A stretch of DNA of 39,680 bases from a virus (lineage: Duplodnaviria > Heunggongvirae > Uroviricota > Caudoviricetes). This document shows positions 1-22,649 of this stretch, in pieces. Every line of letters starts with the position of its first letter. Positions within the stretch are counted from its first letter, which is position 1. The notes under the pieces were generated by a model. It made no database searches and had not been told where the DNA came from. It saw only the letters and a program-made list of their open reading frames with translations. The stretch is from the IMG/VR virus record IMGVR_UViG_2506520037_000006; one strand, given 5' to 3'. A program made the position numbers and the translations under genes.

Positions 1-2445
1 ATGCCAACACCAACCATCATCAAAACACTCGCCACCCACCGCGAAAAACCGTTTGTCAGCGTCGTCACGCCAACCTGGAACCGCGGCGCATTCCTGCCGT
101 ACCTGCTCTATATGTACCGCTATCAGGATTACCCGGCAGACCGCCGCGAACTCATCATCCTCGACGATTCCCCACAAAGCCATCAACACATCATCGACCG
201 CCTGACCAATGGCACGCCGGAAGCCTTTAACATCCGCTACATCCATCACCCGGAAAAACTGCCGCTGGGCAAAAAACGCAACATGCTCAACGAACTGGCG
301 CGCGGCGAATACATCCTCTGCATGGATGATGACGACTACTATCCGGCAGATAAAATCTCTTACACCATCGCTATGATGCAAAAACACCGGGCGCTCATCT
401 CCGGTTCCGACCAGATCCCCATCTGGTACAGCCATATCAACCGTATCTTTCAAAGCCGCAGCTTTGGCCCACATAATATCCTCAACGGCACCTTTTGCTA
501 TCACCGTAACTACCTGAAAAAGCACCGTTACGACGATGATTGCAATTTAGGCGAAGAGAAAAGTTTCACCGACAATTTCAGCGTTAACCCGCTGCAACTG
601 CCCGGCGAGCGCACGATTTTGTGTATCTCGCATAGCCACAACACCTTTGATAAAGACTTTATTATCGGGGCCAGCACGCCAGTAAACACGGCGCTTACGG
701 ATATCGTCCGCGATCCGCTGCTGCGCAATGCTTATCTGAGTCTGCATAACGCCACTCATCACCAGGCGATCAACCATCAGGCGATCGATCAGGTGGTCGT
801 CGTGAATCTGGATAAACGCCCGGATCGCTTACAACAGATCCGTGAAGAACTGGCATTGCTGCATATTCCACCCGAGAAGATCACCCGCCTTGCCGCCTGT
901 GAAGATGAAAACGGTCAACGGGGCCGCCGCCTGTCGCACTTGCAGGCGCTGCGACTGGCGCAACAGCATGGCTGGCAAAATTACCTGTTGCTGGAAGATG
1001 ACGCGGTTATTCTCAAGCAGGAAAAACATATTCAGGTGCTGAACACGCTGCTGGCGAGCCTGGCGAAAATTCCCTGGCAGGTGATGATCCTCGGCGGCGA
1101 AATTTCGCAGGGAACGATGCTAAAAAGTTTGCCGGGGCTGGTGCACGCGCGGGACTGCCGCAAAGTGTGCGCTTATCTGGTGAACAGCCGCTACTACCCG
1201 CAACTGGCGCAGCAGTTGAGCAACGATGAGCACTCGCTGGAAGACGTCTGGCAGCCGCTGCTACGCGCCGACAAATGGCTGGCCTGTTACCCGAGCCTTT
1301 GTTACCAGCGACCGGGCTTTAGCGATATCGAGAAAAAAGTGACCGACAACATTAGTCACTATTTCAATAAGTTACCTGTATCCACAAAGCCATCCGCATT
1401 ACCCATCGCCGACACCATCGGCTTTTTTATGGAAACCTCATTCCACTACGCGCTGTATCGTCCAATCATCACCGCTCTACAGGCGCAGGGGAAGAGCTGC
1501 ACACTAGTGATCAATGACCGCGTGTTTAAACCGTTTCTTGATGAGATGCTGGAAACACTGAAAAACATCGACGATCCGCAGCTTAAAGGTATGCGCTTGT
1601 CTGAGATGCAGGCACATAGTCAGCGGGTGAAATGCCTGGTCAGCCCCTACCACACGCCTGCGCTCAATGGCCTTTCACCCGTGAACATCCGCGCCATGTA
1701 CGGCTTAGCTAAAGAGACGTGGAACCATGCAGACTGGAACCGTTTTTATCAGCGTATTTTGTGTTACAGCCACTACAGCCAGCGGGCGCTGGAACATTTC
1801 GGCAATGCAAAAGTGGTTGGCAACCCGCGCTTCGACGCCTGGCATAACGGCACGTTCGACCGCGCTCTGCCGGAAAATATTCAACCCGATTCCTGTAAAC
1901 CTACGGTGCTCTACGCCCCCACGTTTGGCGCATTAAGCTCCCTGCCCCACTGGGCAGAAAAATTGGGCCGCTTAAGCGGTGATGTGAACCTGATTTGCAA
2001 ACTGCACCACGGCACCAGCTCGCGCCCGCAAGAAGCTGCATCGCTGGCCCTGGCGCGCAGGCACTTAAAACAGCTCACCGACTCCGCCCGCCACACGCTG
2101 GCGCTACTGGCAAAGGCCGATTACGTGCTCACCGATAACAGTGGGTTTATTTTCGATGCGATCCACGTTGATAAACGGGTGATCCTGCTCGACTTCCCGG
2201 GCATGACGGAACTGCTCGACGGTGAGAAAAGTTATTCCACGCCGGAGAGCGCCGACCAGCGGATTCGCGAAATATTGCCGGTGGCTCATGAGGTTGCGGA
2301 ACTGCGTTACTTATTGTCAGAGGCGTTTGACTGGGGGTCGGTGCAGGCGCGGCTTACGGAGATTCGCCATCACTATTGCGATGCGTTTATGGATGGCAAG
2401 GCGGGAGAACGGGCGGCGATTGTGATTGTGGAGGCGCTGGGGTAA
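1..2445 (+). CDS. Host multidomain glycosyltransferase: N-terminal GT2-like domain, central GT25-like domain, C-terminal TagB/TagF-like CDP-glycerol glycerophosphotransferase domain
   Basis: 814-aa ORF beginning with ATG at window base 1 (an upstream extension cannot be excluded); DxD-type MDDDD motif in N-terminal third; VLYAPTF and VLTDNSGFIFD motifs typical of TagF-family enzymes in C-terminal third; stop TAA at 2443-2445. Confidence 0.6.
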   Translation: MPTPTIIKTLATHREKPFVSVVTPTWNRGAFLPYLLYMYRYQDYPADRRELIILDDSPQSHQHIIDRLTNGTPEAFNIRYIHHPEKLPLGKKRNMLNELARGEYILCMDDDDYYPADKISYTIAMMQKHRALISGSDQIPIWYSHINRIFQSRSFGPHNILNGTFCYHRNYLKKHRYDDDCNLGEEKSFTDNFSVNPLQLPGERTILCISHSHNTFDKDFIIGASTPVNTALTDIVRDPLLRNAYLSLHNATHHQAINHQAIDQVVVVNLDKRPDRLQQIREELALLHIPPEKITRLAACEDENGQRGRRLSHLQALRLAQQHGWQNYLLLEDDAVILKQEKHIQVLNTLLASLAKIPWQVMILGGEISQGTMLKSLPGLVHARDCRKVCAYLVNSRYYPQLAQQLSNDEHSLEDVWQPLLRADKWLACYPSLCYQRPGFSDIEKKVTDNISHYFNKLPVSTKPSALPIADTIGFFMETSFHYALYRPIITALQAQGKSCTLVINDRVFKPFLDEMLETLKNIDDPQLKGMRLSEMQAHSQRVKCLVSPYHTPALNGLSPVNIRAMYGLAKETWNHADWNRFYQRILCYSHYSQRALEHFGNAKVVGNPRFDAWHNGTFDRALPENIQPDSCKPTVLYAPTFGALSSLPHWAEKLGRLSGDVNLICKLHHGTSSRPQEAASLALARRHLKQLTDSARHTLALLAKADYVLTDNSGFIFDAIHVDKRVILLDFPGMTELLDGEKSYSTPESADQRIREILPVAHEVAELRYLLSEAFDWGSVQARLTEIRHHYCDAFMDGKAGERAAIVIVEALG

Positions 2446-2456
2446 ACCGCGCAACT

Positions 2457-2485
2457 GCCTGATGCGCTTCGCTTATCAGGCCTAC
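2457..2485. repeat. REP (repetitive extragenic palindromic) unit, enterobacterial type
   Basis: gcctgatgcgcttcgcttatcaggcctac, imperfect palindrome immediately 3' of host gene. Confidence 0.7.
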
Positions 2486-2500
2486 GGATCGATCACGTCC

Positions 2501-2528
2501 TGTAGGCCGGATAAGGCGTTTACGCCGC
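2501..2528. repeat. Second REP unit of a BIME, interrupted by the Mu insertion (continues at 39246..39254)
   Basis: tgtaggccggataaggcgtttacgccgc; joined to right flank it reads ...ggcgtttacgccgcatccggca, the classic REP core. Confidence 0.7.
2524..2528. repeat. Left copy of 5-bp target-site duplication (GCCGC)
   Basis: gccgc immediately precedes Mu left terminus; identical pentamer at 39246..39250. Confidence 0.85.
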
Positions 2529-2715
2529 TGTATTGATTCACTTGAAGTACGAAAAAAACCGGGAGGACATTGGATTATTCGGGATCTGATGGGATTAGAT
2601 TTGGTGGGGCTTGCAAGCCTGTAGTGCAAATTTTAGTCGTTAATCAATGAAACGCGAAAGATAGTAAAAAATTGCTTTTGTTTCATTGAAAATACGAAAA
2701 ACAAAAACACTGCAA
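2529..2715 (+). other. Mu attL: MuA end-binding sites L1, L2, L3
   Basis: Repeated MuA-site-like motifs (gaagtacgaaaaa, tgaaacgcgaaag, gaaaatacgaaaaac) within the first ~190 bp. Confidence 0.75.
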
Positions 2716-2866
2716 ATCATTTCAATAACAGCTTCAAAAAACGTTCAAAACCGATAACAACCAAGCTGTCACCAAATGACTCATATCACAAATCAGCTTA
2801 TGCCGTTTAGGTATGTTACATGTGTGATTATGTGAGGTGAAGTATGTTTTAGCTGGTTCATGGTTG

Positions 2867-3457
2867 TTATACGGCTTTTTTTACCTCCTGTGGTTCCTGT
2901 GAAGGTACTACAACACTTTCCTGTTCATGAATCCCATACTTTGACAAAATCTCTTTGCGTTTTTCTTCAGGTAATGCATCTAGCATCATCAACGTCTGAA
3001 TACTTTGCTGTGAAAATCCTATAAAGCTGTAAAGTTTCTGTTCATTAAATACAAGAGGCATTAACGCCAACAACCCCCCTTTACTTAAAAGTTTCAGTGC
3101 CTTGCGTGCTTCATCTGGTTCCAGCTCTTCAATCATATTGATTAAGGTTGTGGTTAATTTGTTTATCAGTTCCGAAGAATCCTGTTTCTCATTGGCTTGA
3201 GCACCAGTATCCGGTGTGGATAACCCCAAGTGCGCAATAACTTGCTCTCGTTCTTTGGTGGGCATCGACATCACATCGTATTCAACAGCTTTCCCCCCCT
3301 TGACACCTTCCTTTTTTCGCTTCGTCCAGCCTTGAACATTTGCTCGATAGTGAACACCAGCAACAGATCCAGGCATACCATCAGCAGCCATAATTTCTTG
3401 CGGCGAACACCAAATTGACTTTTCAGTATTATTCTTTTCTATAAAGTTACTTTTCAA
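2867..3457 (-). CDS. c: Mu repressor c (Repc), 196 aa
   Basis: Translation MKSNFIEKNNTEKSIWCSPQEIMAADG... recognised as Mu c; initiation codon appears to be TTG (3455-3457 on minus strand); residue 47 is Arg. Confidence 0.93.
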   Translation of the reverse strand: MKSNFIEKNNTEKSIWCSPQEIMAADGMPGSVAGVHYRANVQGWTKRKKEGVKGGKAVEYDVMSMPTKEREQVIAHLGLSTPDTGAQANEKQDSSELINKLTTTLINMIEELEPDEARKALKLLSKGGLLALMPLVFNEQKLYSFIGFSQQSIQTLMMLDALPEEKRKEILSKYGIHEQESVVVPSQEPQEVKKAV

Positions 3458-3626
3458 AATTTAAACTCCTTATTTATCAACGCGTTAATCAGTAATCAAA
3501 GGAATTTACCAAAAAGCAGCTTTACAAAAAGCTTTTCAGTAATTATCTTTTTAGTAAGCTAGCTAAGTTTTTACACTTAGTTAAATTGCTAACTTTATAG
3601 ATTACAAAACTTAGGAGGGTTTTTAA
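3458..3626. promoter_or_regulatory. Mu early control region: operators O1-O3, divergent promoters Pe/Pc, IHF site, transposition enhancer (IAS)
   Basis: AT-rich 169-bp divergent intergenic region between c and ner; assignment by position from established Mu biology, individual sites not delimited. Confidence 0.65.
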
Positions 3627-3854
3627 ATGTGTTCCAACGAAAAGGCCCGTGATTGGCATCGTGCGGATGTGATTGCGGGACTTAAGAAAAGAAAGCTCTC
3701 TTTATCAGCTCTTTCCCGGCAGTTTGGTTATGCGCCAACTACATTAGCTAATGCGCTAGAACGACACTGGCCAAAGGGTGAGCAGATTATTGCTAACGCC
3801 TTAGAAACTAAACCGGAAGTAATCTGGCCTAGCCGATATCAAGCAGGTGAATAA
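3627..3854 (+). CDS. ner: Ner, DNA-binding negative regulator of early transcription, 75 aa
   Basis: ATG at 3627 preceded by SD aggaggg; translation [23 protein letters not shown]... matches Mu Ner. Confidence 0.95.
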
Positions 3855-3855
3855 C

Positions 3856-5847
3856 ATGGAACTTTGGGTATCACCGAAAGAGTGTGCGAATCTTCCTGGT
3901 TTGCCGAAAACATCGGCTGGTGTGATTTATGTTGCTAAAAAGCAAGGATGGCAAAACCGCACTAGAGCAGGTGTCAAAGGTGGTAAAGCAATTGAATACA
4001 ATGCGAACTCTTTACCTGTTGAAGCGAAAGCGGCGTTATTGCTGAGACAAGGAGAGATTGAAACAAGCCTGGGGTATTTTGAAATCGCCCGCCCCACGCT
4101 GGAAGCCCATGATTATGATCGTGAGGCACTGTGGAGCAAATGGGATAACGCCAGCGATTCCCAGCGCAGACTTGCTGAAAAATGGTTGCCTGCGGTTCAG
4201 GCTGCAGACGAAATGCTGAACCAGGGGATTTCAACGAAAACGGCTTTTGCGACCGTTGCAGGGCATTACCAGGTCAGCGCATCCACTTTGCGGGACAAGT
4301 ATTACCAGGTACAGAAGTTTGCGAAGCCTGACTGGGCGGCTGCACTTGTTGATGGACGTGGAGCATCCCGTCGCAATGTTCACAAAAGTGAATTTGACGA
4401 GGATGCCTGGCAGTTTCTGATTGCAGATTATCTGCGACCGGAAAAACCCGCTTTCCGCAAATGTTATGAGCGTCTGGAACTGGCAGCCCGCGAGCATGGC
4501 TGGAGTATTCCCTCCCGTGCCACGGCCTTTCGCCGGATTCAGCAACTGGACGAGGCAATGGTTGTTGCCTGTCGTGAAGGTGAACATGCACTGATGCATC
4601 TGATACCGGCACAGCAGCGAACTGTGGAACACCTGGACGCCATGCAGTGGATCAACGGCGACGGTTATCTGCATAACGTCTTTGTACGCTGGTTTAACGG
4701 TGATGTGATCCGTCCGAAAACATGGTTCTGGCAGGATGTGAAAACCCGAAAAATTCTGGGCTGGCGCTGCGATGTGAGCGAGAACATTGATTCAATTCGC
4801 CTCTCGTTCATGGATGTTGTGACTCGCTACGGTATCCCGGAGGATTTTCACATCACCATTGATAACACCCGTGGTGCTGCGAATAAATGGCTGACGGGAG
4901 GCGCGCCCAATCGCTACCGCTTTAAGGTAAAAGAGGACGATCCAAAAGGACTGTTTTTACTGATGGGGGCGAAAATGCACTGGACAAGCGTTGTTGCCGG
5001 TAAAGGCTGGGGCCAGGCAAAACCTGTTGAACGTGCTTTCGGTGTTGGTGGGCTTGAGGAATACGTTGATAAGCATCCGGCACTGGCTGGCGCATATACG
5101 GGGCCAAATCCGCAGGCAAAACCTGATAACTATGGCGACCGCGCTGTTGATGCAGAGCTGTTTCTGAAAACCCTTGCCGAAGGTGTGGCGATGTTCAATG
5201 CCAGAACAGGCCGTGAAACAGAAATGTGCGGGGGCAAACTCTCGTTTGATGATGTTTTCGAGCGTGAATACGCCAGAACGATTGTGCGTAAGCCAACCGA
5301 AGAACAAAAACGGATGCTGTTACTGCCTGCCGAGGCGGTGAACGTTTCACGCAAAGGCGAGTTTACGCTTAAAGTTGGCGGCTCCCTTAAAGGCGCGAAA
5401 AACGTTTATTACAACATGGCATTAATGAATGCCGGCGTGAAAAAAGTTGTGGTCAGGTTTGATCCGCAGCAGCTACACAGCACGGTTTATTGCTACACCC
5501 TGGACGGTCGGTTTATCTGTGAAGCGGAATGTCTGGCACCTGTTGCATTTAATGATGCTGCGGCAGGCCGTGAATATCGCCGCCGCCAGAAACAACTGAA
5601 ATCTGCGACGAAAGCAGCCATTAAGGCGCAGAAACAAATGGACGCGCTGGAAGTTGCTGAACTGCTGCCGCAGATAGCCGAACCAGCAGCACCAGAATCA
5701 CGAATTGTTGGTATTTTCCGGCCTTCCGGTAATACGGAACGGGTGAAGAATCAGGAGCGTGATGATGAATACGAAACTGAGCGTGATGAATATCTGAATC
5801 ATTCGCTGGATATTCTGGAACAGAACAGACGTAAAAAAGCCATTTAA
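3856..5847 (+). CDS. A: MuA DDE transposase, 663 aa
   Basis: ATG at 3856 (track ORF starts 9 nt upstream at GTG); translation [32 protein letters not shown]... matches MuA. Confidence 0.97.
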
Positions 5848-5885
5848 TTAACGTTTAAACAAAATTTAATTACGAGGTTATTCAG

Positions 5886-6824
5886 ATGAATATTTCCGAT
5901 ATTCGCGCAGGACTGCGCACGCTTGTAGAAAATGAAGAAACCACCTTTAAACAAATTGCTCTTGAGAGCGGGCTTTCTACCGGAACTATCAGTAGTTTTA
6001 TCAATGATAAGTACAACGGGGATAACGAGCGTGTTTCACAAATGCTGCAACGCTGGCTGGAAAAATATCATGCAGTGGCAGAACTACCTGAACCGCCCCG
6101 CTTTGTGGAAACGCAGACGGTAAAACAAATCTGGACAAGTATGCGTTTTGCCAGCCTGACTGAAAGTATTGCTGTTGTATGTGGCAATCCTGGTGTGGGC
6201 AAAACCGAAGCGGCCCGTGAATATCGCCGCACCAATAACAATGTCTGGATGATCACCATTACGCCATCCTGTGCCAGCGTTCTGGAATGTCTTACTGAAC
6301 TGGCGTTTGAGCTGGGAATGAATGACGCACCACGCCGTAAAGGGCCGCTCTCCCGCGCCCTGCGACGTCGCCTTGAAGGTACACAGGGGCTGGTTATCAT
6401 CGACGAAGCTGATCATCTTGGTGCCGAAGTTCTGGAAGAACTCCGCCTGTTACAGGAATCAACCCGTATTGGCCTTGTGCTGATGGGAAATCACCGGGTT
6501 TATTCAAATATGACGGGGGGTAACAGAACGGTTGAATTTGCCCGTCTGTTTTCCCGTATTGCAAAGCGCACTGCAATTAATAAAACCAAAAAAGCCGATG
6601 TAAAAGCTATTGCGGATGCCTGGCAGATTAACGGCGAAAAAGAACTGGAGTTATTACAGCAGATTGCGCAGAAACCAGGTGCGCTTCGCATTCTGAATCA
6701 TTCACTTCGCCTTGCAGCCATGACGGCTCACGGTAAAGGTGAGCGTGTTAACGAAGATTATCTGCGTCAGGCTTTCCGTGAATTAGACCTGGACGTTGAT
6801 ATTTCAACGCTGCTGCGTAATTAA
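5886..6824 (+). CDS. B: MuB, ATP-dependent target DNA activator (AAA+), 312 aa
   Basis: Translation MNISDIRAGLRTLVENEETTFKQIALESG...; Walker A GNPGVGKT; SD gagg upstream. Confidence 0.97.
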   Translation: MNISDIRAGLRTLVENEETTFKQIALESGLSTGTISSFINDKYNGDNERVSQMLQRWLEKYHAVAELPEPPRFVETQTVKQIWTSMRFASLTESIAVVCGNPGVGKTEAAREYRRTNNNVWMITITPSCASVLECLTELAFELGMNDAPRRKGPLSRALRRRLEGTQGLVIIDEADHLGAEVLEELRLLQESTRIGLVLMGNHRVYSNMTGGNRTVEFARLFSRIAKRTAINKTKKADVKAIADAWQINGEKELELLQQIAQKPGALRILNHSLRLAAMTAHGKGERVNEDYLRQAFRELDLDVDISTLLRN

Positions 6825-6839
6825 GAAGGAGAAGAAATT

Positions 6840-7067
6840 ATGATGGCCCGAAATATAAAAATGGCAACGGATGCGCAGAACTGGTTACAGGCGCGCGGGA
6901 GTCATGTAAATGAATCATATCTCGGCGTGGCGCGTCCGATTCTTGAAATCACTTACCCACCGGTGGAACTGGTAAAAAACGCGGTCAGAATTATGGAGCA
7001 TAAGTCCGGGGTGGCCCGTTCTGTATGGACGGCCCGTCTTAATGGTTGCCAGATTATCTGGAGATAA
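6840..7067 (+). CDS. kil: Kil, host-killing small early protein, 75 aa
   Basis: First ORF downstream of B with SD aaggagaag; position matches Mu kil. Confidence 0.7.
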
Positions 7068-7069
7068 CG

Positions 7070-7300
7070 ATGTGTATTAAAGCTGAAAAATATATTGAAT
7101 GGGTTAAACACTGTCAGTGCCACGGGGTGCCGCTGACGACATATAAATGCCCCGGATGTGGTGAACAGATTATGACGCAATGCTCACCCGAAAAGGAAAT
7201 TCGGGATTCCCTGACATGTTGTCCGTGGTGCAGCGCAGTTTTCTTTAAACAGGTAAAAGGCGCGAAGGTAAAAGCCAGCGCGGTTATTCAGAATCAATAA
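7070..7300 (+). CDS. Early semi-essential region protein, Cys-rich zinc-ribbon-like, 76 aa
   Basis: ATG at 7070 with SD ggagataacg, 2 nt after kil stop; CxC/CPGC/CCPWC cysteine clusters. Confidence 0.6.
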   Translation: MCIKAEKYIEWVKHCQCHGVPLTTYKCPGCGEQIMTQCSPEKEIRDSLTCCPWCSAVFFKQVKGAKVKASAVIQNQ

Positions 7301-7311
7301 GGTGAAACAAA

Positions 7312-7575
7312 ATGGCAAAAGTAATTATTGAAATTAAAAATACAGTATCTGGAATTAAAGGACGGAATTTGCGCACCAGCATTGCGGTGGACGGTAGTGC
7401 GGAACTGGACGGTGATGAGGGTACACTTGCTGGCATGGTGGCGTTACTGGTGCTTAATAAAAGCCAGAAAATAATTAATGAGTCAGCCCATGAAGCTATT
7501 GAGATTTTGAAAAACGATGGTGTCATCACCAGTGGTCGTGTCACTGAAATGGCTGTTGAAAAAACATGTCACTGA
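7312..7575 (+). CDS. Early semi-essential region hypothetical protein, 87 aa
   Basis: ATG at 7312 with SD aaggtga; same-strand tightly packed operon. Confidence 0.6.
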   Translation: MAKVIIEIKNTVSGIKGRNLRTSIAVDGSAELDGDEGTLAGMVALLVLNKSQKIINESAHEAIEILKNDGVITSGRVTEMAVEKTCH

Positions 7576-8009
7576 AAGGAACGCTGACAATGAATGTCAA
7601 AATCCGAAATGAAATTCAGGCATTAATCCGAATTCAGGAACGCAATAACAACGGTGGTGAATTACGCGAGTTTATTTGTGCGCGTGAAGTTGATGGCTAT
7701 GGTGAAAAAACTTACCTGATTACTTTCGACCATTACAGCATCTGTGCGCGTTATTGCGGCGAAAGCATATCCCGCGCCATTGCGTCTGGCGATGCGTTTA
7801 ACGTGGATTTATGGGAGTACGTCATGGACCGGGAATACATCTGCGCATCAGACCCTGAAGCCCGTGAAATGTGGCAGCGTATCTGGCGCGATTACCGGTT
7901 AATGGCAAAAGGCTGGGCGCGCTGCTGTTATTCCTCGCTTGCCCTGAAAGCGGTTCAGTTATCGCTGCGGCATATTCCGGCATCACTGCGCGAGCCTCTG
8001 CTGTACTGA
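7566..8009 (+). CDS. Early semi-essential region hypothetical protein, 147 aa (alternative start 7590)
   Basis: ORF overlapping upstream gene by 10 nt; second in-frame ATG at 7590 has SD aaagga. Confidence 0.6.
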   Translation: MSLKGTLTMNVKIRNEIQALIRIQERNNNGGELREFICAREVDGYGEKTYLITFDHYSICARYCGESISRAIASGDAFNVDLWEYVMDREYICASDPEAREMWQRIWRDYRLMAKGWARCCYSSLALKAVQLSLRHIPASLREPLLY

Positions 8010-8309
8010 ATGGTGACTGACATGAAGTGTAATCGTAAGCGCTGGTCACGCGAAGACCGGGAATTTATCGAAGCCAACGTCGGGAAAATGACCGTTGAAG
8101 AAATGGCGGAAAAACTGAAAGTCGCCACAACCGCCCTCCGGGCACATGCCAGAAGGCACGGAATATCATTGTGTGTATACCGAATCAGTGAACACGACAA
8201 ATATTTATGTCGTGAACTTTATAAAGAAGGACTGGATATTCATGTTATTGCCCGAAAGATGGAATTAAGCAATCGAGCTGTATCCAGCATTGTATACAGC
8301 GGATATTAA
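8010..8309 (+). CDS. Early semi-essential region protein, possible HTH DNA-binding, 99 aa
   Basis: ATG at 8010 overlapping upstream stop (TGAATG); helix-turn-helix-like segment KMTVEEMAEKLKVATTALRAHARRHG. Confidence 0.55.
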   Translation: MVTDMKCNRKRWSREDREFIEANVGKMTVEEMAEKLKVATTALRAHARRHGISLCVYRISEHDKYLCRELYKEGLDIHVIARKMELSNRAVSSIVYSGY

Positions 8310-8328
8310 TTAACAGGAGCTTTAATTT

Positions 8329-8853
8329 ATGGCTAAACCAGCAAAACGTATCAAGAGTGCCGCAGCGGCTTATGTGCCACAAAACCGCGATGCGGTGATT
8401 ACCGATATTAAACGCATCGGGGATTTACAGCGCGAAGCATCACGTCTGGAAACGGAAATGAATGATGCCATCGCGGAAATTACGGAGAAATTTGCGGCCC
8501 GGATTGCACCGATTAAAACCGATATTGAAACCCTTTCAAAAGGCGTTCAGGGATGGTGTGAAGCGAACCGCGACGAACTGACGAACGGCGGCAAAGTGAA
8601 GACGGCGAATCTTGTCACCGGTGATGTATCGTGGCGGGTCCGTCCACCATCAGTAAGTATTCGTGGTATGGATGCAGTGATGGAAACGCTGGAGCGTCTT
8701 GGCCTGCAACGCTTTATTCGCACGAAGCAGGAAATCAACAAGGAAGCGATTTTACTGGAACCGAAAGCGGTCGCAGGCGTTGCCGGAATTACAGTTAAAT
8801 CAGGCATTGAGGATTTTTCTATTATTCCATTTGAACAGGAAGCCGGTATTTAA
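8329..8853 (+). CDS. gam: Gam, Ku-like DNA-end-binding host-nuclease inhibitor, 174 aa
   Basis: Translation MAKPAKRIKSAAAAYVPQNRDAVITDIKRIGDLQREASRLETEMNDAIAEITEKF... matches Mu Gam; SD caggagc. Confidence 0.92.
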   Translation: MAKPAKRIKSAAAAYVPQNRDAVITDIKRIGDLQREASRLETEMNDAIAEITEKFAARIAPIKTDIETLSKGVQGWCEANRDELTNGGKVKTANLVTGDVSWRVRPPSVSIRGMDAVMETLERLGLQRFIRTKQEINKEAILLEPKAVAGVAGITVKSGIEDFSIIPFEQEAGI

Positions 8854-8951
8854 TACCACCATTAATATTTAATTAATTCACATTCTTTTAATTATGGCGC
8901 GATACGTCAGGAGATTGCTCGCGCCTGAAACAGATTACTGAGGAATAAAAC

Positions 8952-9482
8952 ATGGTTGATGCAAAAATTCTGAATGGTGTCAGCACATTATTACGGGCTT
9001 ACGGACGCCTGACCTGCGGAGTTCTGGCTGAAAAAATGAATATGCTGCCCTCGTCAATGGTGTATTTCCTGCGTGATGCGGTTGATGCCGGAGTGCTCAC
9101 CGAATGCAACGGATTTTATGACGTTCCGCGCCCGCGTCCGACGCCGCCTGTAAGACGAAACGCAACTGAGCAGCCTGCTGTTGATGATGCGGTGTGGTGC
9201 AACTGGCGTCGCTCATTACCCTGGGTGGAAGGTAATACCATCCCCGCGCTGGCAAAAGAGTTTGCGACGGGCGTGCTGACCTGTGAGTCAGTCCACATTG
9301 TTGCTGAGGTGGATAACAGAATGTGCGAACAGGGAATGCCCCGTTTTGTGATGGCTTATATCGATATCCGGCTGGGGCGTTTTATTTGCAGTTCAAGCGT
9401 CTGGAATATCACCGACCATGTACTGCGTTATCTCATTCTTGATTGTTCTCCGGCTCCCGCAGCGGTGCAGGAGGTGGCGTGA
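8952..9482 (+). CDS. Early semi-essential region hypothetical protein, 176 aa
   Basis: ATG at 8952 with SD tgaggaa; translationally coupled to next ORF (TGATG overlap at 9480-9484). Confidence 0.6.
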   Translation: MVDAKILNGVSTLLRAYGRLTCGVLAEKMNMLPSSMVYFLRDAVDAGVLTECNGFYDVPRPRPTPPVRRNATEQPAVDDAVWCNWRRSLPWVEGNTIPALAKEFATGVLTCESVHIVAEVDNRMCEQGMPRFVMAYIDIRLGRFICSSSVWNITDHVLRYLILDCSPAPAAVQEVA

Positions 9483-10012
9483 TGTTTTTTAAAACGTCAA
9501 ATCCCGCAGCACTGCTGGCGTGGGACCAGTTTATGGCGGACTGTCTGAAACTACGCGAAGAAGCCCGCCATCTTGATAAGGTTCTGGGTTGTGGTTGCCG
9601 GTCAGTATTCAGCACAAGTATTGGTGGGCGTTATTTTCATGGTGTGAACTTTCCGGGGAATGAGCGCCCTTTCTCGCGGGAGCTGTGGACCGTACAACGG
9701 CCCGCATCAGGTAACAGTTGCAGGCCCAGAACTTCGCGGATACCTGCTCATCTCAGGGAGCAGGCAAGAGAGCTGGCGAAAATATGGCAGGAGAATATTC
9801 CGGTCACTTACGCCCGCACAGACGCTCTTTTACCCGCACTGGGACTGGATTTCAGCGCAACAATATTCGGGCCGCTCCAGTGGTTCCGTGTTGGTGATGT
9901 GATTTACGTCATGACGGGGATGACACCCGCGCAAGGCCGCATGACTGAAATCCTTTCTGACGAATTTATCCGGGCGCAAAAACAGGCGGAGGTAAACAAT
10001 GGAAAACAATAA
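9482..10012 (+). CDS. Early semi-essential region hypothetical protein, 176 aa
   Basis: ATG at 9482 with SD gcaggaggtg; track ORF begins upstream at TTG 9443. Confidence 0.6.
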   Translation: MFFKTSNPAALLAWDQFMADCLKLREEARHLDKVLGCGCRSVFSTSIGGRYFHGVNFPGNERPFSRELWTVQRPASGNSCRPRTSRIPAHLREQARELAKIWQENIPVTYARTDALLPALGLDFSATIFGPLQWFRVGDVIYVMTGMTPAQGRMTEILSDEFIRAQKQAEVNNGKQ

Positions 10013-10181
10013 AACATCGTATTCGTGGCTGGGGAAATTCACCACGGTGAAACAGGAATGCCCGACCTGCGGTAATGAATCCCCTGAATATCTGAAAGAG
10101 TGCCCTCATTGTGGCGGGCTGAAATGCAACCACTGCGATATGGGCGATGACACAGCGTGCATGAATTGTGAAGGTGAATAA
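9999..10181 (+). CDS. Small zinc-ribbon protein with four CxxC pairs, 60 aa
   Basis: CPTC, CPHC, CNHC, CMNC motifs; SD ggcggagg before ATG 9999. Confidence 0.55.
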   Translation: MENNKTSYSWLGKFTTVKQECPTCGNESPEYLKECPHCGGLKCNHCDMGDDTACMNCEGE

Positions 10182-10182
10182 T

Positions 10183-10485
10183 ATGAATAATGAAACTAAA
10201 TTTACTCCCCTTAATATTGATAACGTCATGGCTGAAAAAGGGATGCTGGAACGTGTTCGCGCTATCGTTGAATATGGTATTAAGCATAATCTCACCGCCA
10301 GAGAAGTCCGTGACATTATCAACCGCGAAATGAATCGTCTGGAAACAGTAGTGGCACTGCAAAATGAAACAGCCCGCGAGGAGTACATCCGCCGCAGGCT
10401 GGGGCTATCAGACCAGGATATTGTTACTGACGCTCATGTGTTTGAGGCTTTTGAGATCCGTCAGCATCTGGGTCTAACGAACTGA
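10183..10485 (+). CDS. Early semi-essential region hypothetical protein, 100 aa
   Basis: ATG at 10183 with SD aaggtga, 1 nt after upstream stop; track ORF starts at GTG 10168. Confidence 0.6.
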   Translation: MNNETKFTPLNIDNVMAEKGMLERVRAIVEYGIKHNLTAREVRDIINREMNRLETVVALQNETAREEYIRRRLGLSDQDIVTDAHVFEAFEIRQHLGLTN

Positions 10486-10690
10486 TAATGTCTTCCATGA
10501 TCTTTGACAGTTGCAGTTTTTCGCGGCGGCTTGTTCTCATTGCAGGCGCATCTTTTAAAATCTCTGCTGAAGAGCTGAAAATGGCTTTGCCCTCTTCTGC
10601 GGTGATGATCGCCTTCTTCACCAGAAGGCGCACCAGTGCTGATGCAATCGCATAACCTGCAACATCATAAGGTTGTACATTATTTTCCAT
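10424..10690 (-). CDS. Candidate leftward-transcribed small protein (88 aa) inside the early region; function unknown
   Basis: ATG at 10688-10690 (minus) preceded by SD agagagga with 5-nt spacer; fills the only gap in rightward coding; overlaps 3' end of upstream rightward gene by 62 nt. Confidence 0.3.
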   Translation of the reverse strand: MENNVQPYDVAGYAIASALVRLLVKKAIITAEEGKAIFSSSAEILKDAPAMRTSRREKLQLSKIMEDIISSLDPDADGSQKPQTHERQ

Positions 10691-10760
10691 AAAATCCTCT
10701 CTGATTGATGTGTAAATTCAGGCGGTGTTGCAGCACCGCCCCCTTTCCGGAGGTACGATC

Positions 10761-11312
10761 ATGAGTCGCACATCCCTGATTAAATTAATCCATGTCGCCC
10801 GTCGGGAGCTACAACTCGACGACGACACTTACCGCGCTTTTCTGATGCAGAAAACGGGCAAAATCAGTTGCCGCGAGCTGACGGTCACGCAACTGGAACA
10901 GGTGCTCGGTGCCATGAAAGAACGCGGCTTTAAGAAGCAGAATAAATACCCCCGTCGCCGCTTTAAGGGGCATGTCACGCCCCGTGAGAAGGTGTATAAA
11001 ATCTGGCAGCAGATGGCAGAAGACGGTTTTATTACCGATGGCGGTGATGTGGCGCTGGATAAATATGTTCAGCGCCTGACCGCGAAACGCAACGGCGGAC
11101 AGGGCGTTTCCACACTGGCGTGGTGTCATGGCGACACGCTGCTGACAGTCCTCGAAACACTCAAGCAGTGGCACATCCGCTGTATTCGTGAAGCCTTTTC
11201 CCGTCACGGGCTTCCATTGCCGGTCAGTCCGTCCGGTCGTGAACTGCGCGGCTATGATGCCATGACGGCGGCTTATGCCCATGCCAGAAAGACACGGAGG
11301 ATGGCACAATGA
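10761..11312 (+). CDS. gemA: GemA, early regulatory protein, 183 aa
   Basis: ATG at 10761 with SD ggaggtacgatc; translation MSRTSLIKLIHVARRELQLDDDTYRAF...; located immediately upstream of mor. Confidence 0.85.
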   Translation: MSRTSLIKLIHVARRELQLDDDTYRAFLMQKTGKISCRELTVTQLEQVLGAMKERGFKKQNKYPRRRFKGHVTPREKVYKIWQQMAEDGFITDGGDVALDKYVQRLTAKRNGGQGVSTLAWCHGDTLLTVLETLKQWHIRCIREAFSRHGLPLPVSPSGRELRGYDAMTAAYAHARKTRRMAQ

Positions 11313-11698
11313 CGGAAGATTTATTTGGTGATTTGCAGGATGACACCATCCTGGCACATCTTGACAATCCCGCCGAGGATACGTCACGCTTTCCGGCACT
11401 GCTGGCGGAGCTGAACGATTTACTGCGCGGGGAATTGTCCCGGCTGGGTGTTGATCCTGCCCATTCACTGGAGATTGTTGTGGCTATCTGTAAGCATCTG
11501 GGCGGCGGTCAGGTCTACATTCCACGCGGTCAGGCTCTGGACTCGCTGATTCGGGATTTGCGTATCTGGAATGATTTTAACGGTCGCAACGTCAGCGAAC
11601 TGACCACCCGTTATGGTGTCACTTTCAATACGGTGTACAAAGCCATTCGCCGGATGCGACGGCTGAAATACCGCCAGTACCAGCCCTCACTTCTGTAA
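11309..11698 (+). CDS. mor: Mor, middle operon transcription activator, 129 aa
   Basis: Translation MTEDLFGDLQDDTILAHLDNPAEDTSRFP... matches Mu Mor; ATGA overlap with gemA stop. Confidence 0.95.
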   Translation: MTEDLFGDLQDDTILAHLDNPAEDTSRFPALLAELNDLLRGELSRLGVDPAHSLEIVVAICKHLGGGQVYIPRGQALDSLIRDLRIWNDFNGRNVSELTTRYGVTFNTVYKAIRRMRRLKYRQYQPSLL

Positions 11699-11703
11699 AC
11701 AGT

Positions 11704-11728
11704 AAAGCCGGTTAATCCGGCTTTTTTT
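11704..11728 (+). terminator. Rho-independent terminator ending the early transcript (Mu t9.2)
   Basis: gccgg-ttaat-ccggc hairpin followed by ttttttt directly after mor stop. Confidence 0.85.
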
Positions 11729-11775
11729 ACGTCCTCAATATCCTGTGATGAATAACCGTACCGGGGAAAATCATC

Positions 11776-11994
11776 ATGGGTAAAGGCTGGAATGCATCCT
11801 TTCATCTTGGCAGACGTGAGCGGCTGCGTCAGGAGGTTTTGCACCGTGTCGCCGGTGGGCCACGTCCTGCGCCCCGCGACTATACCGGTCATGATGGCAC
11901 CCACGGCAGTTATTACATGAAAGGCTGGCAGTCAGTTGATATGCCGGAAATTCTTCATCATTGCCTGCTTTACAGGGAGAAACATTATGTCTGA
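11776..11994 (+). CDS. Middle-operon hypothetical protein, 72 aa
   Basis: ATG at 11776; first ORF after early terminator, upstream of C. Confidence 0.5.
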   Translation: MGKGWNASFHLGRRERLRQEVLHRVAGGPRPAPRDYTGHDGTHGSYYMKGWQSVDMPEILHHCLLYREKHYV

Positions 11995-12349
11995 GCGTTC
12001 TGCTCGTCAGTGGCCTGATTTTTTATCGGTGGTGTTACTGGCGCTGTTATTGTGGATAAGTCTGTTTTGTGGCTGGCGCGCGCTGATGTTTTGCTGTGCC
12101 TCGGTTTTCAGTGTTGCTTTATGTGTTGCCGCTGATTGTCTGGATGCGCTGATAATGAGCTGCCGGGTGCCTGAACATTTTGCCCGGTTCGTCTGGCCTC
12201 TGACCTGGCTGGGGAGTCTGTCCGGGCTGGGATTAGCCGTGATGGCAACGTCTCAACTGAAAACGGGTCCTGAGCATGTCATCTGGGCGCTGGCCGGATT
12301 GCTGACGTTCTGGCTCTCATTTCGTTTTCGCGCTCGTCTGTTCGGGTAA
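11987..12349 (+). CDS. Middle-operon membrane protein (multiple predicted TM helices), 120 aa
   Basis: ATG at 11987 with SD agggaga; hydrophobic segments LSVVLLALLLWISLFCGW, VFSVALCVAADCL, LGLAVMATSQL; track ORF starts upstream at TTG 11936. Confidence 0.55.
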   Translation: MSERSARQWPDFLSVVLLALLLWISLFCGWRALMFCCASVFSVALCVAADCLDALIMSCRVPEHFARFVWPLTWLGSLSGLGLAVMATSQLKTGPEHVIWALAGLLTFWLSFRFRARLFG

Positions 12350-12358
12350 AGGGGCACC

Positions 12359-12478
12359 ATGTACAGAAAATTCAGTGATGAATGTTTCGGGCCGTCCACG
12401 CTGATTAATGCGATAAAAGTGATTGCCCTTGTGGTTCTGATAACCATCAGTGCCGTGGTGTATCTTTCTGTCTGTTAA
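12359..12478 (+). CDS. Small single-pass membrane protein, 39 aa (below the 60-aa cut-off of the ORF track)
   Basis: ATG 12359 with SD aaagggg; translation MYRKFSDECFGPSTLINAIKVIALVVLITISAVVYLSVC; stop TAA 12476-12478. Confidence 0.4.
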   Translation: MYRKFSDECFGPSTLINAIKVIALVVLITISAVVYLSVC

Positions 12479-12490
12479 CCGGGGGAAAAT

Positions 12491-12913
12491 ATGCAGCATG
12501 ATTTATTTGAACACGATCCGGCAATTCGCCAGTTAATCGGACATATTGATAACATCCCGGCCCCGGAACTGGAATCACGCTGGCCCCGTTCGGTGGTTGA
12601 TCTGATTGATGTTCTGGAAAACGAACTGAAACGCCAGAACGTCAGCAATCCCCGTGAACTTGCCCGTAAACAGGCCGTTGCCCTGTCCTGTTTTCTGGGT
12701 GGACGGCAGTTTTACATCCCCTGCGGCGATACGATCCTGACCGCGTTACGCGACGATTTGCTTTACTGCCAGTTTAATGGTCGTAACATGGAAGAACTGC
12801 GTCGCCAGTACCGCCTGTCCCAGCCGCAGATCTACCAGATTATTGCCCGCCAGAGAAAGCTGCATACACGACGTCATCAGCCTGATCTGTTCTCACCTGA
12901 AACCCCAAAATAA
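12491..12913 (+). CDS. C: C, late transcription activator (Mor/C family), 140 aa
   Basis: Translation MQHDLFEHDPAIRQLIGHIDNIPAPELESRW... matches Mu C; SD gggggaaaat. Confidence 0.95.
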   Translation: MQHDLFEHDPAIRQLIGHIDNIPAPELESRWPRSVVDLIDVLENELKRQNVSNPRELARKQAVALSCFLGGRQFYIPCGDTILTALRDDLLYCQFNGRNMEELRRQYRLSQPQIYQIIARQRKLHTRRHQPDLFSPETPK

Positions 12914-12936
12914 CCGGCATCCTGCCGGTTATTTCC
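12914..12936 (+). terminator. Hairpin downstream of C, possible middle-transcript terminator
   Basis: ccggcatcctgccgg stem-loop followed by ttatttcc. Confidence 0.4.
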
Positions 12937-12939
12937 TGT

Positions 12940-13004
12940 CACCATAATCCCGCACCTGCCACCTGATTTTTTAGACTGCCATCAGAGAATTTTTTCAGGG
13001 AAGC
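12940..13004 (+). promoter_or_regulatory. Plys, C-dependent late promoter region
   Basis: Position upstream of lys; motif tcccgcacct at 12948-12957 shared with the G-I intergenic region; candidate -10 tagact 12972-12977. Confidence 0.5.
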
Positions 13005-13523
13005 ATGATGGCGGGGATACCAAAAAAACTGAAAGCCGCACTGCTGGCTGTAACGATTGCCGGTGGCGGAGTGGGTGGTTATCAGGAAATGACCCGTCAG
13101 TCTCTGATCCACCTGGAAAATATCGCTTATATGCCTTACCGCGATATTGCCGGTGTGCTTACGGTCTGTGTGGGACATACCGGGCCGGATATCGAAATGC
13201 GCCGTTACAGCCATGCGGAGTGTATGGCTCTCCTCGACAGTGATTTAAAACCGGTTTATGCGGCAATCGATCGTCTTGTCAGGGTGCCGCTGACGCCATA
13301 TCAGAAAACGGCGCTGGCAACGTTTATTTTCAACACCGGTGTTACCGCATTCAGTAAATCAACGCTGCTGAAAAAACTCAATGCCGGTGATTACGCCGGA
13401 GCGCGTGACCAGATGGCCCGCTGGGTGTTTGCCGCAGGCCATAAATGGAAAGGACTGATGAACCGTCGCGAAGTGGAAATGGCAATCTGGAATATCAGGG
13501 GGGCGGATGACCTTCGCCAGTAA
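13005..13523 (+). CDS. lys: Lys, SAR endolysin (GH24 lysozyme-like), ~171 aa
   Basis: N-terminal Gly/Ala-rich signal-anchor-release segment LKAALLAVTIAGGGVGGY; E-8-D-5-T catalytic spacing in ENIAYMPYRDIAGVLT. Confidence 0.9.
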   Translation: MMAGIPKKLKAALLAVTIAGGGVGGYQEMTRQSLIHLENIAYMPYRDIAGVLTVCVGHTGPDIEMRRYSHAECMALLDSDLKPVYAAIDRLVRVPLTPYQKTALATFIFNTGVTAFSKSTLLKKLNAGDYAGARDQMARWVFAAGHKWKGLMNRREVEMAIWNIRGADDLRQ

Positions 13524-13893
13524 AAGTTTACTACTGGCAGCCGTGTTTACCGCCGTTCTGTCCGGGGGGTTGTGGCACAGGCTGGACAGCACCCGCCACG
13601 ATAACCAGACGCTGCGCCGTGAATTACAGACGGAGCAACAGGCCCGCCACACTGCTGAATGGTTGTTACACGGTCAGGAACAGACGATGCAGGTATTTTC
13701 CGCTATCCGTGCCGCAAATCGTGCCGCACGGCTGGCAGATGAGACAGAACATCATGATGCAAAAGAAAAAATTACAACCGCCATTACTGGTGACAATTGC
13801 AGCACTCGTCCTGTGCCTGCCGTTGCTGCTGACAGGTTGCGGGAACTCGAAAAACGCACCCGTGCCATCGGTGGTGATCCTGCCCGAAATTGA
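13507..13893 (+). CDS. i-spanin (inner-membrane spanin subunit), 128 aa
   Basis: N-terminal TM helix LLLAAVFTAVLSGGLW followed by charged helical periplasmic domain; directly downstream of endolysin. Confidence 0.7.
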   Translation: MTFASKSLLLAAVFTAVLSGGLWHRLDSTRHDNQTLRRELQTEQQARHTAEWLLHGQEQTMQVFSAIRAANRAARLADETEHHDAKEKITTAITGDNCSTRPVPAVAADRLRELEKRTRAIGGDPARN

Positions 13894-14095
13894 TACAGAA
13901 CTGACGGAAGCAACGCCCGTTCCGCCCATGCCACAGCCCCTGACGTGGGGAGCATCCCTTCTCTGGAATGCTGACCTGTTGATGGCGCTCGGGCAGTGCA
14001 ACCGCGACAAGGCATCAGTCCGGGAACAGGAGATCCGAAGGAAAGAAATTTATGAACGAAGACCAGAACCGGGCGGTGGCGCTGCTGCTCGCTGA
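13754..14095 (+). CDS. o-spanin (outer-membrane lipoprotein spanin subunit), 113 aa, overlapping the i-spanin in another frame
   Basis: ATG 13754 inside i-spanin gene; lipoprotein signal with lipobox LLLTGC; Pro-rich mature part. Confidence 0.65.
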   Translation: MMQKKKLQPPLLVTIAALVLCLPLLLTGCGNSKNAPVPSVVILPEIDTELTEATPVPPMPQPLTWGASLLWNADLLMALGQCNRDKASVREQEIRRKEIYERRPEPGGGAAAR

Positions 14096-14246
14096 ACTCT
14101 GGCAGGGGGATACCCGTGATATTCCCCGCCCGGCGGCGTATGACCCGCCTGTATTGTGTGCCGGTTGCGGTCGTGAGCTGCGGCCTGATGTGCTGAGACA
14201 GCAGCCGATGGCGAACTACTGCCACTGGTGCCGTGGAGCAGAATAA
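14052..14246 (+). CDS. Hypothetical small Cys-containing protein, 64 aa
   Basis: ATG 14052 with SD aaggaaag; CAGCG...CHWC motifs. Confidence 0.5.
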   Translation: MNEDQNRAVALLLAELWQGDTRDIPRPAAYDPPVLCAGCGRELRPDVLRQQPMANYCHWCRGAE

Positions 14247-14545
14247 TGGATTTGATTTCAGTTTTAGCGTTATGGCCTTACCTGTTGCCTGTTGTGGCCG
14301 GTGGGGCCGTCTGGGCGATGCGTCGTAGTTTTGCCAGCACCGAGCGTGTGGAGCGTCTTGAAAACCGGATGACCGAAATGGAAACCCGCTACGCCAGCAT
14401 CCCTGGCACAGAAGATGTACACGAAATGCGCCTGCGAATTGCAGAGCTGTCCGGCGATATCCGGGTGCTGTCCCAGCGGGTGCAGTCATTTTCCCATCAA
14501 CTGGAGCTGCTGCTTGAAAACGCAGTAAACCGGAGTAATTCATGA
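14246..14545 (+). CDS. Lysis-region membrane protein (Mu gp25-like, reported releasin), 99 aa
   Basis: ATG 14246 overlapping upstream stop (TAATG); N-terminal TM MDLISVLALWPYLLPVVAGGAVWAM then coiled-coil-like region; track ORF starts at GTG 14228. Confidence 0.6.
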   Translation: MDLISVLALWPYLLPVVAGGAVWAMRRSFASTERVERLENRMTEMETRYASIPGTEDVHEMRLRIAELSGDIRVLSQRVQSFSHQLELLLENAVNRSNS

Positions 14546-14832
14546 TTAACGATATTCTGACCGAAGACCGTCGTCTGGTCATCCTGCGTTCCCTGATGGA
14601 CTGCAATAACGAAGCAAACGAATCCATCCTTCAGGACTGTCTGGATGCATACGGACACAACGTTTCCCGCGATGTGGTTCGCGGCCAGATTGACTGGCTG
14701 GCAGAGCAGCAACTGGTCACCGTGGAAAACCTGCGCGGCTTTTATGTCGTAACGCTGACCTCCCGAGGTCAGGATGTGGCAGAAGGTCGTGCCCGCGTTG
14801 CCGGTGTCAAGCGTCCTCGTCCCCGTGCATGA
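14542..14832 (+). CDS. Hypothetical late protein, 96 aa
   Basis: ATG 14542 with SD ccggagtaa, ATGA overlap with upstream gene. Confidence 0.6.
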   Translation: MINDILTEDRRLVILRSLMDCNNEANESILQDCLDAYGHNVSRDVVRGQIDWLAEQQLVTVENLRGFYVVTLTSRGQDVAEGRARVAGVKRPRPRA

Positions 14833-14843
14833 CAGGAGGCGTG

Positions 14844-15419: not shown

Positions 15420-15426
15420 GAGGGTT

Positions 15427-20387: not shown

Positions 20388-20583
20388 ACAGAATCAGGCA
20401 TAAAATCAGCCGCACAGATTTTTTAAAACGCGCCACGGGATTTTTAAACCGGTATTTAACGGTGTATGAATCCCGTTTTATCTTCCTTTCACTTTCTTTC
20501 TCCAGTACTCAAATAGCATAACCCCAGATTTTCCCGCACCTCCCGCAAACTGACTGCTCACAAACCATGATGAGCAGCAGGAC
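20388..20583 (+). promoter_or_regulatory. G-I intergenic region: PI late promoter and the central strong gyrase site (SGS) of Mu
   Basis: 196-bp non-coding gap at the genome centre; motif tcccgcacct at 20532-20541 as in Plys; SGS assignment from established Mu biology by position only. Confidence 0.5.
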
Positions 20584-22583: not shown

Positions 22584-22591
22584 CCGTCATT

Positions 22592-22615
22592 AAAAGGCGG
22601 TTCAGACCGCCTTTT
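22592..22615 (+). terminator. Hairpin immediately downstream of major capsid gene (terminator/attenuator-like)
   Basis: aaaaggcgg-ttcaga-ccgcctttt perfect 9-bp stem with short T-run. Confidence 0.45.
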
Positions 22616-22649
22616 AACCTGATTTAAAGGAAAAGGAGGAGCATGTGTT

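Follow-up and report, generated by a model that had tools for sequence, protein, structure and literature searches.

The stretch of DNA analysed here (the window, 39,680 bp) corresponds to positions 292365-332044 of the Escherichia coli W chromosome (NC_017664.1), read on the reverse strand, and runs from the start codon of a gene for an 814-amino acid (aa) transferase to the start codon of a gene for a 131-aa cytidylyltransferase. The transferase gene (1..2445, plus strand) opens with ATG, is intact and is identical to the E. coli W RefSeq coding sequence WP_001143092.1, which is annotated as 'glycosyltransferase'. It closes the lfgA-lfgM-lfgN-lafV-glycosyltransferase (GT) unit of the Flag-2 lateral-flagella cluster, and the TagD-like glycerol-3-phosphate cytidylyltransferase gene (39285..39680, minus strand; WP_000859525.1) is the final gene of the lfiE-lfiJ unit. 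The two genes lie 36.8 kb apart in the window because a phage Mu prophage (2529-39245) has inserted in their spacer. An earlier interpretation made from the letters alone (the sequence-only reading) had described a convergent tagD-like gene, and this gene is real, though it is found across Mu. The 814-aa protein itself is a fusion of two sugar-transferase domains with a teichoic acid-type glycerol-phosphate transferase.

The sequence-only reading had proposed a composition of GT2, GT25 and TagF-like domains for this protein. This is borne out by Pfam for the GT2 domain, and by orthologue, profile-to-PDB and fold evidence for the other two. In a Pfam check of the 814-aa sequence itself only the GT2 part of the claim stood, with GT25 and TagF remaining below their cutoffs. 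The assignments of the latter two rest on scans of orthologues, profile-to-PDB searches and fold searches that go beyond direct Pfam and NCBIfam scans. Searches of PDB sequences with the whole protein, or with a profile of the whole family, recovered the GT2 domain alone. In the AlphaFold2 model of the whole protein (predicted local distance difference test, pLDDT, 85.9), three catalytic-type domains account for all 814 residues. Purifying selection acts on all three of them, with a ratio of non-synonymous to synonymous substitution rates (dN/dS) within Escherichia of 0.06-0.17 for each domain. No transmembrane-like or hydrophobic segment is present in the transferase, the maximum 19-residue Kyte-Doolittle mean being 1.42.

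The GT2 domain, of the GT-A fold, occupies positions 1..750 (plus strand; aa ~1-250). Its core (residues 20-134) matches PF00535 (Glycos_transf_2) with an E value of 3e-18 and 66.7 bits against a cutoff of 23.3, and GT2 enzymes in the PDB are matched by sequence at E values down to 3e-9. The motifs L-D55-D56-S57 and D109-D110-D111-D112, the latter a DxD run as the sequence-only reading had pointed out, are invariant in about 85 relatives with one exception. This exception is a degenerate second copy in an Enterobacter locus (L042). Because the GT2 motifs never vary except in that copy, the GT2 domain is the presumed universal catalytic core of the family, to which GT25 and TagF activities would come fused or separate.

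The central domain (763..1398, plus strand; aa ~255-466) is a GT-A domain with a divergent GT25-like character. Scanned as a whole, the protein gave no match to the Pfam GT25 family (PF01755, Glyco_transf_25) at E<=1, and the central domain scanned alone reaches 15.8 bits over 29 residues, below the cutoff of 24. On direct Pfam evidence the GT25 claim of the sequence-only reading thus fails, yet four independent lines support it. In other genera, the corresponding flagellar region encodes stand-alone paralogues of ~220 aa that score above the GT25 cutoff (30.8-34.6 bits) and match the central domain at phmmer E values of 1e-28 to 1e-31. Furthermore, the Plesiomonas orthologue P0085 (38% identical) scores 26.9 bits to GT25, above the cutoff, and is one of 5 among 39 aligned relatives to match PF01755 at E<=0.01. 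The third line is a motif, G305-x2-G308-R-x2-S312-H313 followed by L-L-E332-D333-D334, in which E332-D333-D334 corresponds to the EDD metal motif of COLGALT1. In the GT25 catalytic domain of that enzyme, EDD is an unusual Mn2+-binding motif (Glu435, Asp437) and is essential (PMC12003778). Finally, the top PDB fold matches of the whole-protein model are COLGALT1 chains (E 3e-17 to 1e-15), the best with ~540 aligned columns across both GT-A domains. Together, sequence and model point to a divergent GT25 domain.

The C-terminal domain (1399..2442, plus strand; aa ~467-814) resembles the CDP-glycerol glycerophosphotransferases of the TagF type, with a GT-B-like fold. It carries the motifs GNPRFD (607-612), YAPTF (638-642), KLHHG (667-671), TDNSG (711-715) and FD (718-719). 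Against PF04464 (Glyphos_transf) it scores 19.4 bits within the whole protein and 21.6 bits alone, so that the cutoff of 22.1 is not reached. Among orthologues, 17 match PF04464 at E<=0.01 (best 2e-8); the family is also present in almost every stand-alone homologue of 350-380 aa (45-55% identical), and these are named CDP-glycerol glycerophosphotransferase. A profile of the domain searched against the PDB yielded only Cps3D (3e-19), TagF (1e-14) and TarL (1e-14) as significant matches, and when the domain was modelled alone (pLDDT 91.6) the six best fold matches were all TagF (TMq 0.64-0.69). The motifs VLYAPTF and VLTDNSGFIFD, on which the sequence-only reading had based its TagF-like assignment, align with IMYAPTW and LITDYSSVMFD of TagF; with the profile and fold matches and a Pfam score just below the cutoff, that assignment holds. 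The catalytic H584 of TagF (LRMHY) aligns with H669 (KLHHGT), which is invariant in the domain alignment and in all TagD-linked members. Conservation in essentially all TagD-linked members extends to H482, R564, Y567, G568, H576, H669, H670, D712, S714, F718 and D719.

The convergent partner gene starts 2 bp past the fliJ stop codon. Its product aligns over its full length (residues 1-130) with Bacillus subtilis TagD (1COZ) at an E value of 4e-33 and contains the HxGH (FHVGH) and RTxxxSTT motifs. The best family is NCBIfam TIGR01518 (TagD), with 115 bits against an equivalog cutoff of 165. In RefSeq, WP_000859525.1 is named variously 'adenylyltransferase/cytidyltransferase family protein' and 'FAD synthase family protein'; on the strongest evidence it is a putative TagD-type glycerol-3-phosphate cytidylyltransferase. 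The distribution of both partners was followed in a scan of species-representative genomes (80 loci), in which open reading frames were searched with the E. coli W proteins, giving 82 counted loci, mostly one per species. A TagF-like module and a TagD or IspD gene occur together in 42 loci and are both absent from 23; 16 loci have the TagF-like module only, several of these being truncated contigs or containing large inserts, and in 1 there is TagD alone. Likewise, no tagD accompanies the two orthologues whose TagF motifs have decayed, those of Leminorella (L034) and Citrobacter freundii (L037). This co-occurrence supports the pairing of the transferase with a CDP-glycerol synthase gene made in the sequence-only reading, and from the counts and the adjacent TagD-like gene the TagF-like domain is predicted to use CDP-glycerol.

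The annotated neighbourhood of both genes is the Flag-2 cluster, located between yafL/hicAB and dinB in E. coli W. The gene order is lfhAB, lfiRQPNM, lafK, lfiEFGHIJ, tagD, Mu, GT, lafV, lfgNMA, lfgB-L, lafW, lafZ, lafA and lafB-U, and the annotation of the cluster contains no pseudogene flags, lafA included. The transferase and tagD-like genes form the inner ends of the two convergent Flag-2 units, between lfiJ and lfgN. This placement recurs across genera: 78 of the 82 loci have FliH/I/J on one flank and FlgN/M/A on the other, and in 74 a FliB-like gene (lafV) adjoins the transferase core. Outside the Enterobacterales, the operon headed by the Burkholderia oklahomensis homologue comprises genes for a GT2+GT25-like protein (490 aa), a FliB-like protein, a methyltransferase, a HAD hydrolase, an IspD-like cytidylyltransferase, a stand-alone TagF-like protein (377 aa), flagellin and MotAB. 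In Plesiomonas, motAB and a sigma factor gene are found at a distance of 6 kb from the orthologue. The three-domain architecture and its association with flagella can be stated with high confidence.

The locus is already known. De Maayer, Pillay and Coutinho (2020; BMC Genomics 21:100; PMC6993521) named the inter-operon segment variable region 1 and assigned it to flagellin glycosylation. Their family 'GT2-1' (average 828 aa) was recorded in 222 strains from 8 genera of Enterobacteriaceae, placed between lfiJ and lfgN, with TagD in 235 strains, and teichoic acid-like glycopolymers were proposed as part of the Flag-2 flagellin glycan. GT2-1 of that study and WP_001143092.1 belong to one gene family. 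However, GT2-1 was given a GT2 domain only, and TagB-like proteins were counted as separate genes (65 strains). That study does not describe that GT2-1 also contains GT25-like and TagF-like domains, how the modules are fused and split, or that the central domain is dead in the relatives of ~470 aa (its GT2-3). The three-domain reading and the module shuffling described below are modest additions to that work.

The preferred interpretation is a soluble, cytoplasmic, trifunctional enzyme that modifies the lateral flagellin of Flag-2, and this overall picture is given a probability of about 60%. It draws on observed features, namely the identity of each domain, conservation of the catalytic motifs, selection that is purifying on every domain, flagellar synteny and TagF/TagD co-occurrence; flagellin as the acceptor and glycerol phosphate as the transferred group are proposed with lower confidence than the picture as a whole. 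The enzyme would act in the cytoplasm on LafA, ahead of export. Since its catalytic motifs are invariant across the family, the GT2 domain probably starts the glycan, transferring a sugar from a nucleotide sugar to form an O-linkage with Ser or Thr residues of LafA. The GT25-like domain, whose EDD site is intact only in the three-domain proteins, would probably add a second, beta-linked hexose. The TagF-like domain would then transfer sn-glycerol-3-phosphate from CDP-glycerol, supplied by the convergent TagD-like enzyme, onto the glycan, either as a cap or repeatedly. The identity of the sugars, the order of these steps and the formation of a short glycan as opposed to a polymer we infer in the same way as the acceptor. 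In a bolder version, the enzyme would be a self-contained polymerase like the TagF-like capsule polymerases, in which alternating transfers build a teichoic acid-like poly(glycosyl-glycerol-phosphate) chain directly on the lateral flagellin of a Gram-negative bacterium, with LafV as the flagellin-recognition partner and not a lysine methylase; this version is speculative and unlikely to hold.

The LafA protein of E. coli W (L006, 2504-3418) has no lysine between residues 93 and 233, and its residues 126-225 consist of 34% Ser/Thr and no Lys. A lysine-linked glycosylation resembling that of collagen, considered in view of the COLGALT1 fold and the FliB-like neighbour, was down-weighted on account of this lysine-free stretch. 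LafV itself (309 aa; L001, 12893-13822) is encoded just upstream of the window and matches the NCBIfam model Lys_methyl_FliB at an E value of 2e-10. It covers only positions 107-363 of this 373-position FliB lysine-methylase model, the N-terminal part of FliB being absent. The label of flagellin lysine methylase that LafV carries is open to doubt, and the protein may instead partner the glycosyltransferase.

Several observations weigh against the flagellin-modification model. The C-terminal domain has no WHG motif, which in TagF provides the histidine H444. The acceptor-side half gave no reliable alignment to TagF, either by MAFFT or by hidden Markov models and with distant PF04464 members or TagF fragments; judged by its position at the end of a strand, the counterpart of H444 is most likely Y567 (in RAMYG), a position that 3 orthologues fill with His. 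With the H444-type histidine replaced, it cannot be taken for granted that the TagF-like domain is catalytically competent. The sub-cutoff Pfam matches of the E. coli W protein to both GT25 and TagF count on the same side. Furthermore, tagD is missing from the interval between fliJ and the transferase gene in six orthologous loci whose flanks are complete, and four of these six (Pseudescherichia L026 and L029-L031) retain intact TagF motifs. Synteny, moreover, ties the transferase to flagella and not to an acceptor molecule. Literature searches found no experiment tying the transferase or any Flag-2 region-1 gene to flagellin modification, and nothing relevant on glycerol-phosphate flagellin glycans or on experimental work on lafV or Flag-2 glycosylation.

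The sequence-only reading had taken lipopolysaccharide (LPS) or capsule as the target of the pair. In its fuller form, this explanation has the two enzymes decorate LPS, enterobacterial common antigen or capsule with glycosyl and glycerol-phosphate groups, using a lipid-linked acceptor at the inner membrane as TagB and TagF do. TagF-family enzymes of known function do use lipid-linked or polysaccharide acceptors, fusions of GT-A and TagF-like domains are known as capsule polymerases, and many GT25 members are LPS enzymes, as the Pfam family name reflects. However, the transferase gene keeps strictly to its place between lfiJ and lfgN across genera, with a flagellin gene as neighbour in Burkholderia, and tagD follows fliJ by 2 bp. 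Beyond the window the flanking genes are flagellar. The annotated surroundings of the E. coli gene showed no Wzx/Wzy, flippase, polymerase, ABC-transporter or lipid-carrier genes and no kps-type context, and the transferase is free of hydrophobic segments. Because the transferase sits inside the Flag-2 cluster, in its variable region 1, it most likely acts on flagellin and not on LPS or capsule, and a polysaccharide target is regarded as highly improbable.

A flagellar enzyme could also differ from the preferred scheme in its chemistry or its substrate: the C-terminal domain might transfer hexose-1-phosphate or another group, or be weakened, or the acceptor might be another exported flagellar protein. 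Hexose phosphate is the group moved by the GT-A/TagF-like polymerases Cps1B and CslB, the transferase does not keep the WHG histidine, and to the four tagD-less loci with intact TagF motifs can be added the relatives in L004, L050 and L079, which pair with an IspD-like protein and not with TagD. Against this stand the tight co-occurrence of TagD and TagF, the purifying selection on the TagF-like domain and the alignment of its donor-binding half with the CDP-glycerol and CDP-ribitol enzymes TagF, TarL and Cps3D. In addition, the set of conserved residues is kept in TagD-linked members and decayed in the two degenerate loci that do not have tagD. Such a deviation is judged unlikely. It is rather improbable, too, that the enzyme is a silent passenger, with Flag-2 unexpressed in E. 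coli W and the transferase conferring no current phenotype there. In its favour, literature searches brought up no account of lateral flagella, or of Flag-2 being expressed, in E. coli W, and about three quarters of complete E. coli genomes do not have the cluster; against it stand the absence of pseudogene flags anywhere in the W cluster, a dN/dS of ~0.1 on all three domains and a Mu insertion that disrupts neither gene. Silence would, moreover, concern expression and not biochemical function, and is compatible with the flagellin-modification model.

One of the closest known likenesses of the transferase is to the TagF-like capsule polymerases of Gram-negative pathogens (Litschko et al. 2018, mBio), among them Cps1B, CslB, Ccs2, Cps3D, Cps7D and Bcs3 of Haemophilus influenzae b, which likewise combine GT-A and TagF-like domains in one polypeptide. 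They share the donor-side motifs and the H584-type histidine with the transferase, and Cps3D is the best PDB sequence match of its C-terminal domain. Capsule polymerases that transfer polyol phosphate have a CDP-alcohol synthase encoded nearby, and the members are encoded in group 2 (kps) loci, most of them carrying a TPR domain (Litschko et al. 2018). In contrast, the transferase has flagellar flanks with no group 2 kps context and no TPR family by Pfam, contains an extra GT25-like GT-A domain between the GT2 and TagF-like domains and is 814 aa long compared to more than 1100 aa. The H444-type histidine is replaced in the transferase, probably by Tyr567, and since the gene context is a flagellar cluster its acceptor is probably a protein-linked glycan. 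With the wall teichoic acid polymerases TagF and TarL (PDB 3L7I-M, 8VA1) the transferase shares GxPRxD, YAPT(W/F), the H584 histidine and (T/S)DxS..FD at ~15% identity, but it lacks a membrane-binding region at the N-terminus, and its TagF-like domain is joined to two GT-A domains.

The human collagen galactosyltransferase COLGALT1/GLT25D1 (PDB 9EVJ/9EVK; PMC12003778) is similar to the transferase in its tandem of GT-A and GT25 domains, with EDD in the second domain, and in being a protein-glycan enzyme, a role that is predicted for the transferase. Identity is 13-14%, and COLGALT1 has no TagF-like domain. The N-terminal GT-A domain of COLGALT1 is assigned structural roles and its GT25 domain is catalytic, whereas the transferase family has invariant GT2 motifs and a GT25-like domain that is degenerate in the two-domain relatives, so the catalytic and structural roles have apparently been swapped. 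A hydroxylysine-type acceptor is unlikely because the variable region of LafA has no lysine.

The modules of the transferase are combined differently across genera, and two classes of loci can be distinguished. In Class A (Escherichia, Citrobacter, Pseudescherichia, Leminorella and Plesiomonas) the genes for FlgN, LafV and the three-domain GT follow one another and meet those for FliJ and TagD, which are read in the opposite direction. In Class B (Enterobacter, Pantoea, Erwinia, Cedecea, Kluyvera, Burkholderia and others) FliJ is followed in the same direction by a two-domain GT (~470 aa) and LafV. After these comes one of several sets: TagD with a stand-alone TagF-like protein, a stand-alone GT25, a GT25+TagF fusion (610-657 aa), TagF with an IspD-like protein, or nothing. 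EDD is kept in 36 of the 37 three-domain proteins and lost in 48 of the 49 two-domain relatives, where the central domain has D-A/S-x or DDR instead. GT25+TagF-like fusions (610-657 aa) and GT2+TagF-like fusions (~511 aa) were seen among L048 (12336-14195), L066 (12209-14179), L069, L054, L055 and L078. Long TagF-like proteins (625-639 aa) in L050 and L079 are paired with an IspD-like cytidylyltransferase and not with TagD, which suggests a different CDP-activated alcohol.

Two loci show further variation on the three-domain scaffold. Enterobacter sp. CC120223-11 (L042) has a two-domain GT2+GT25-like gene and, in addition, a three-domain paralogue with tagD adjacent. In this paralogue the GT2 (LDGG / LSDNL) and GT25 (PQG) motifs are destroyed and all TagF-type residues are intact, as would be expected of a three-domain scaffold that serves the TagF-like activity alone. 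In Plesiomonas sp. (L003, 11211-15618) there is no tagD downstream of the three-domain orthologue. The genes found there instead encode an NTP_transferase, a class I glutamine amidotransferase and a 1011-aa PEP-utilising enzyme resembling pyruvate phosphate dikinase (PPDK-like), followed by motBA; these neighbours may represent another activated-substrate pathway for the same enzyme scaffold. Flag-2 genes of enterobacterial type were also met in two contigs assigned to distant taxa, L013 (a metagenome-assembled genome labelled 'Collinsella sp.') and L021 ('Chryseobacterium sp. 18061'), with transferases 95% and 62% identical, respectively, and with FlgA/M/N and LafV. These contigs are most likely contamination or the result of mis-binning.

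The remainder of the window is made up of the spacer between the two genes and the prophage within it. The original 117-bp convergent spacer is divided into a left part (2446..2528), which contains a palindromic element of the repetitive extragenic palindromic (REP) type and ends in GCCGC (2524-2528), the 5-bp Mu target-site duplication, and a right part (39246..39284), which opens with the second GCCGC copy (39246-39250). The two parts enclose a complete Mu prophage (2529..39245, plus strand) of exactly 36,717 bp, which over its initial 24.5 kb shows 100% identity to the reference Mu genome (AF083977/NC_000929). A natural unoccupied site in CP042969 has a single GCCGC within the 117-bp REP-type spacer between the convergent genes. 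Mu splits neither partner gene and merely sets the transferase and tagD-like genes apart; it is no part of the enzyme system. The Mu junction is common to only 9 complete E. coli genomes, of the W lineage (W, LY180, KO11FL, AQ15, SL112, B-766, HBUT-L, hubt-sl). NZ_CP026085, labelled 'DH5alpha', was rejected as a natural empty site, as its extra 225 bp are an FRT scar between Mu ends, left by an engineered deletion of Mu in a W background. In this genome (NZ_CP026085.1; L002, 14527-14745) the Datsenko-Wanner-type FRT scar gtgtaggctggagctgcttc...gaagttcctatac...catatg replaces Mu, and ~80 bp of the left end and ~60 bp of the right end of Mu are kept. NZ_CP026085.1 is an engineered strain of W type, probably mislabelled as DH5alpha.

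The sequence-only reading correctly described the locus as an accessory trait, as 1278 of 5426 complete E. coli genomes carry the transferase gene. The current annotations, 'glycosyltransferase' and 'FAD synthase family protein', understate both genes, and an LPS or capsule reading would misdirect follow-up to the wrong molecule. With GT2, GT25, TagF and either TagD or IspD occurring as fusions or as separate units, the family forms a natural set of interchangeable modules, much like the capsule polymerases employed in the enzymatic synthesis of vaccine antigens. If the flagellin-modification model is true, E. coli and many Enterobacterales would bear a glycerol-phosphate-containing, teichoic acid-like glycan on their second flagellar filament, which would alter the charge and antigenicity of the filament and possibly its recognition by phages or the immune system.

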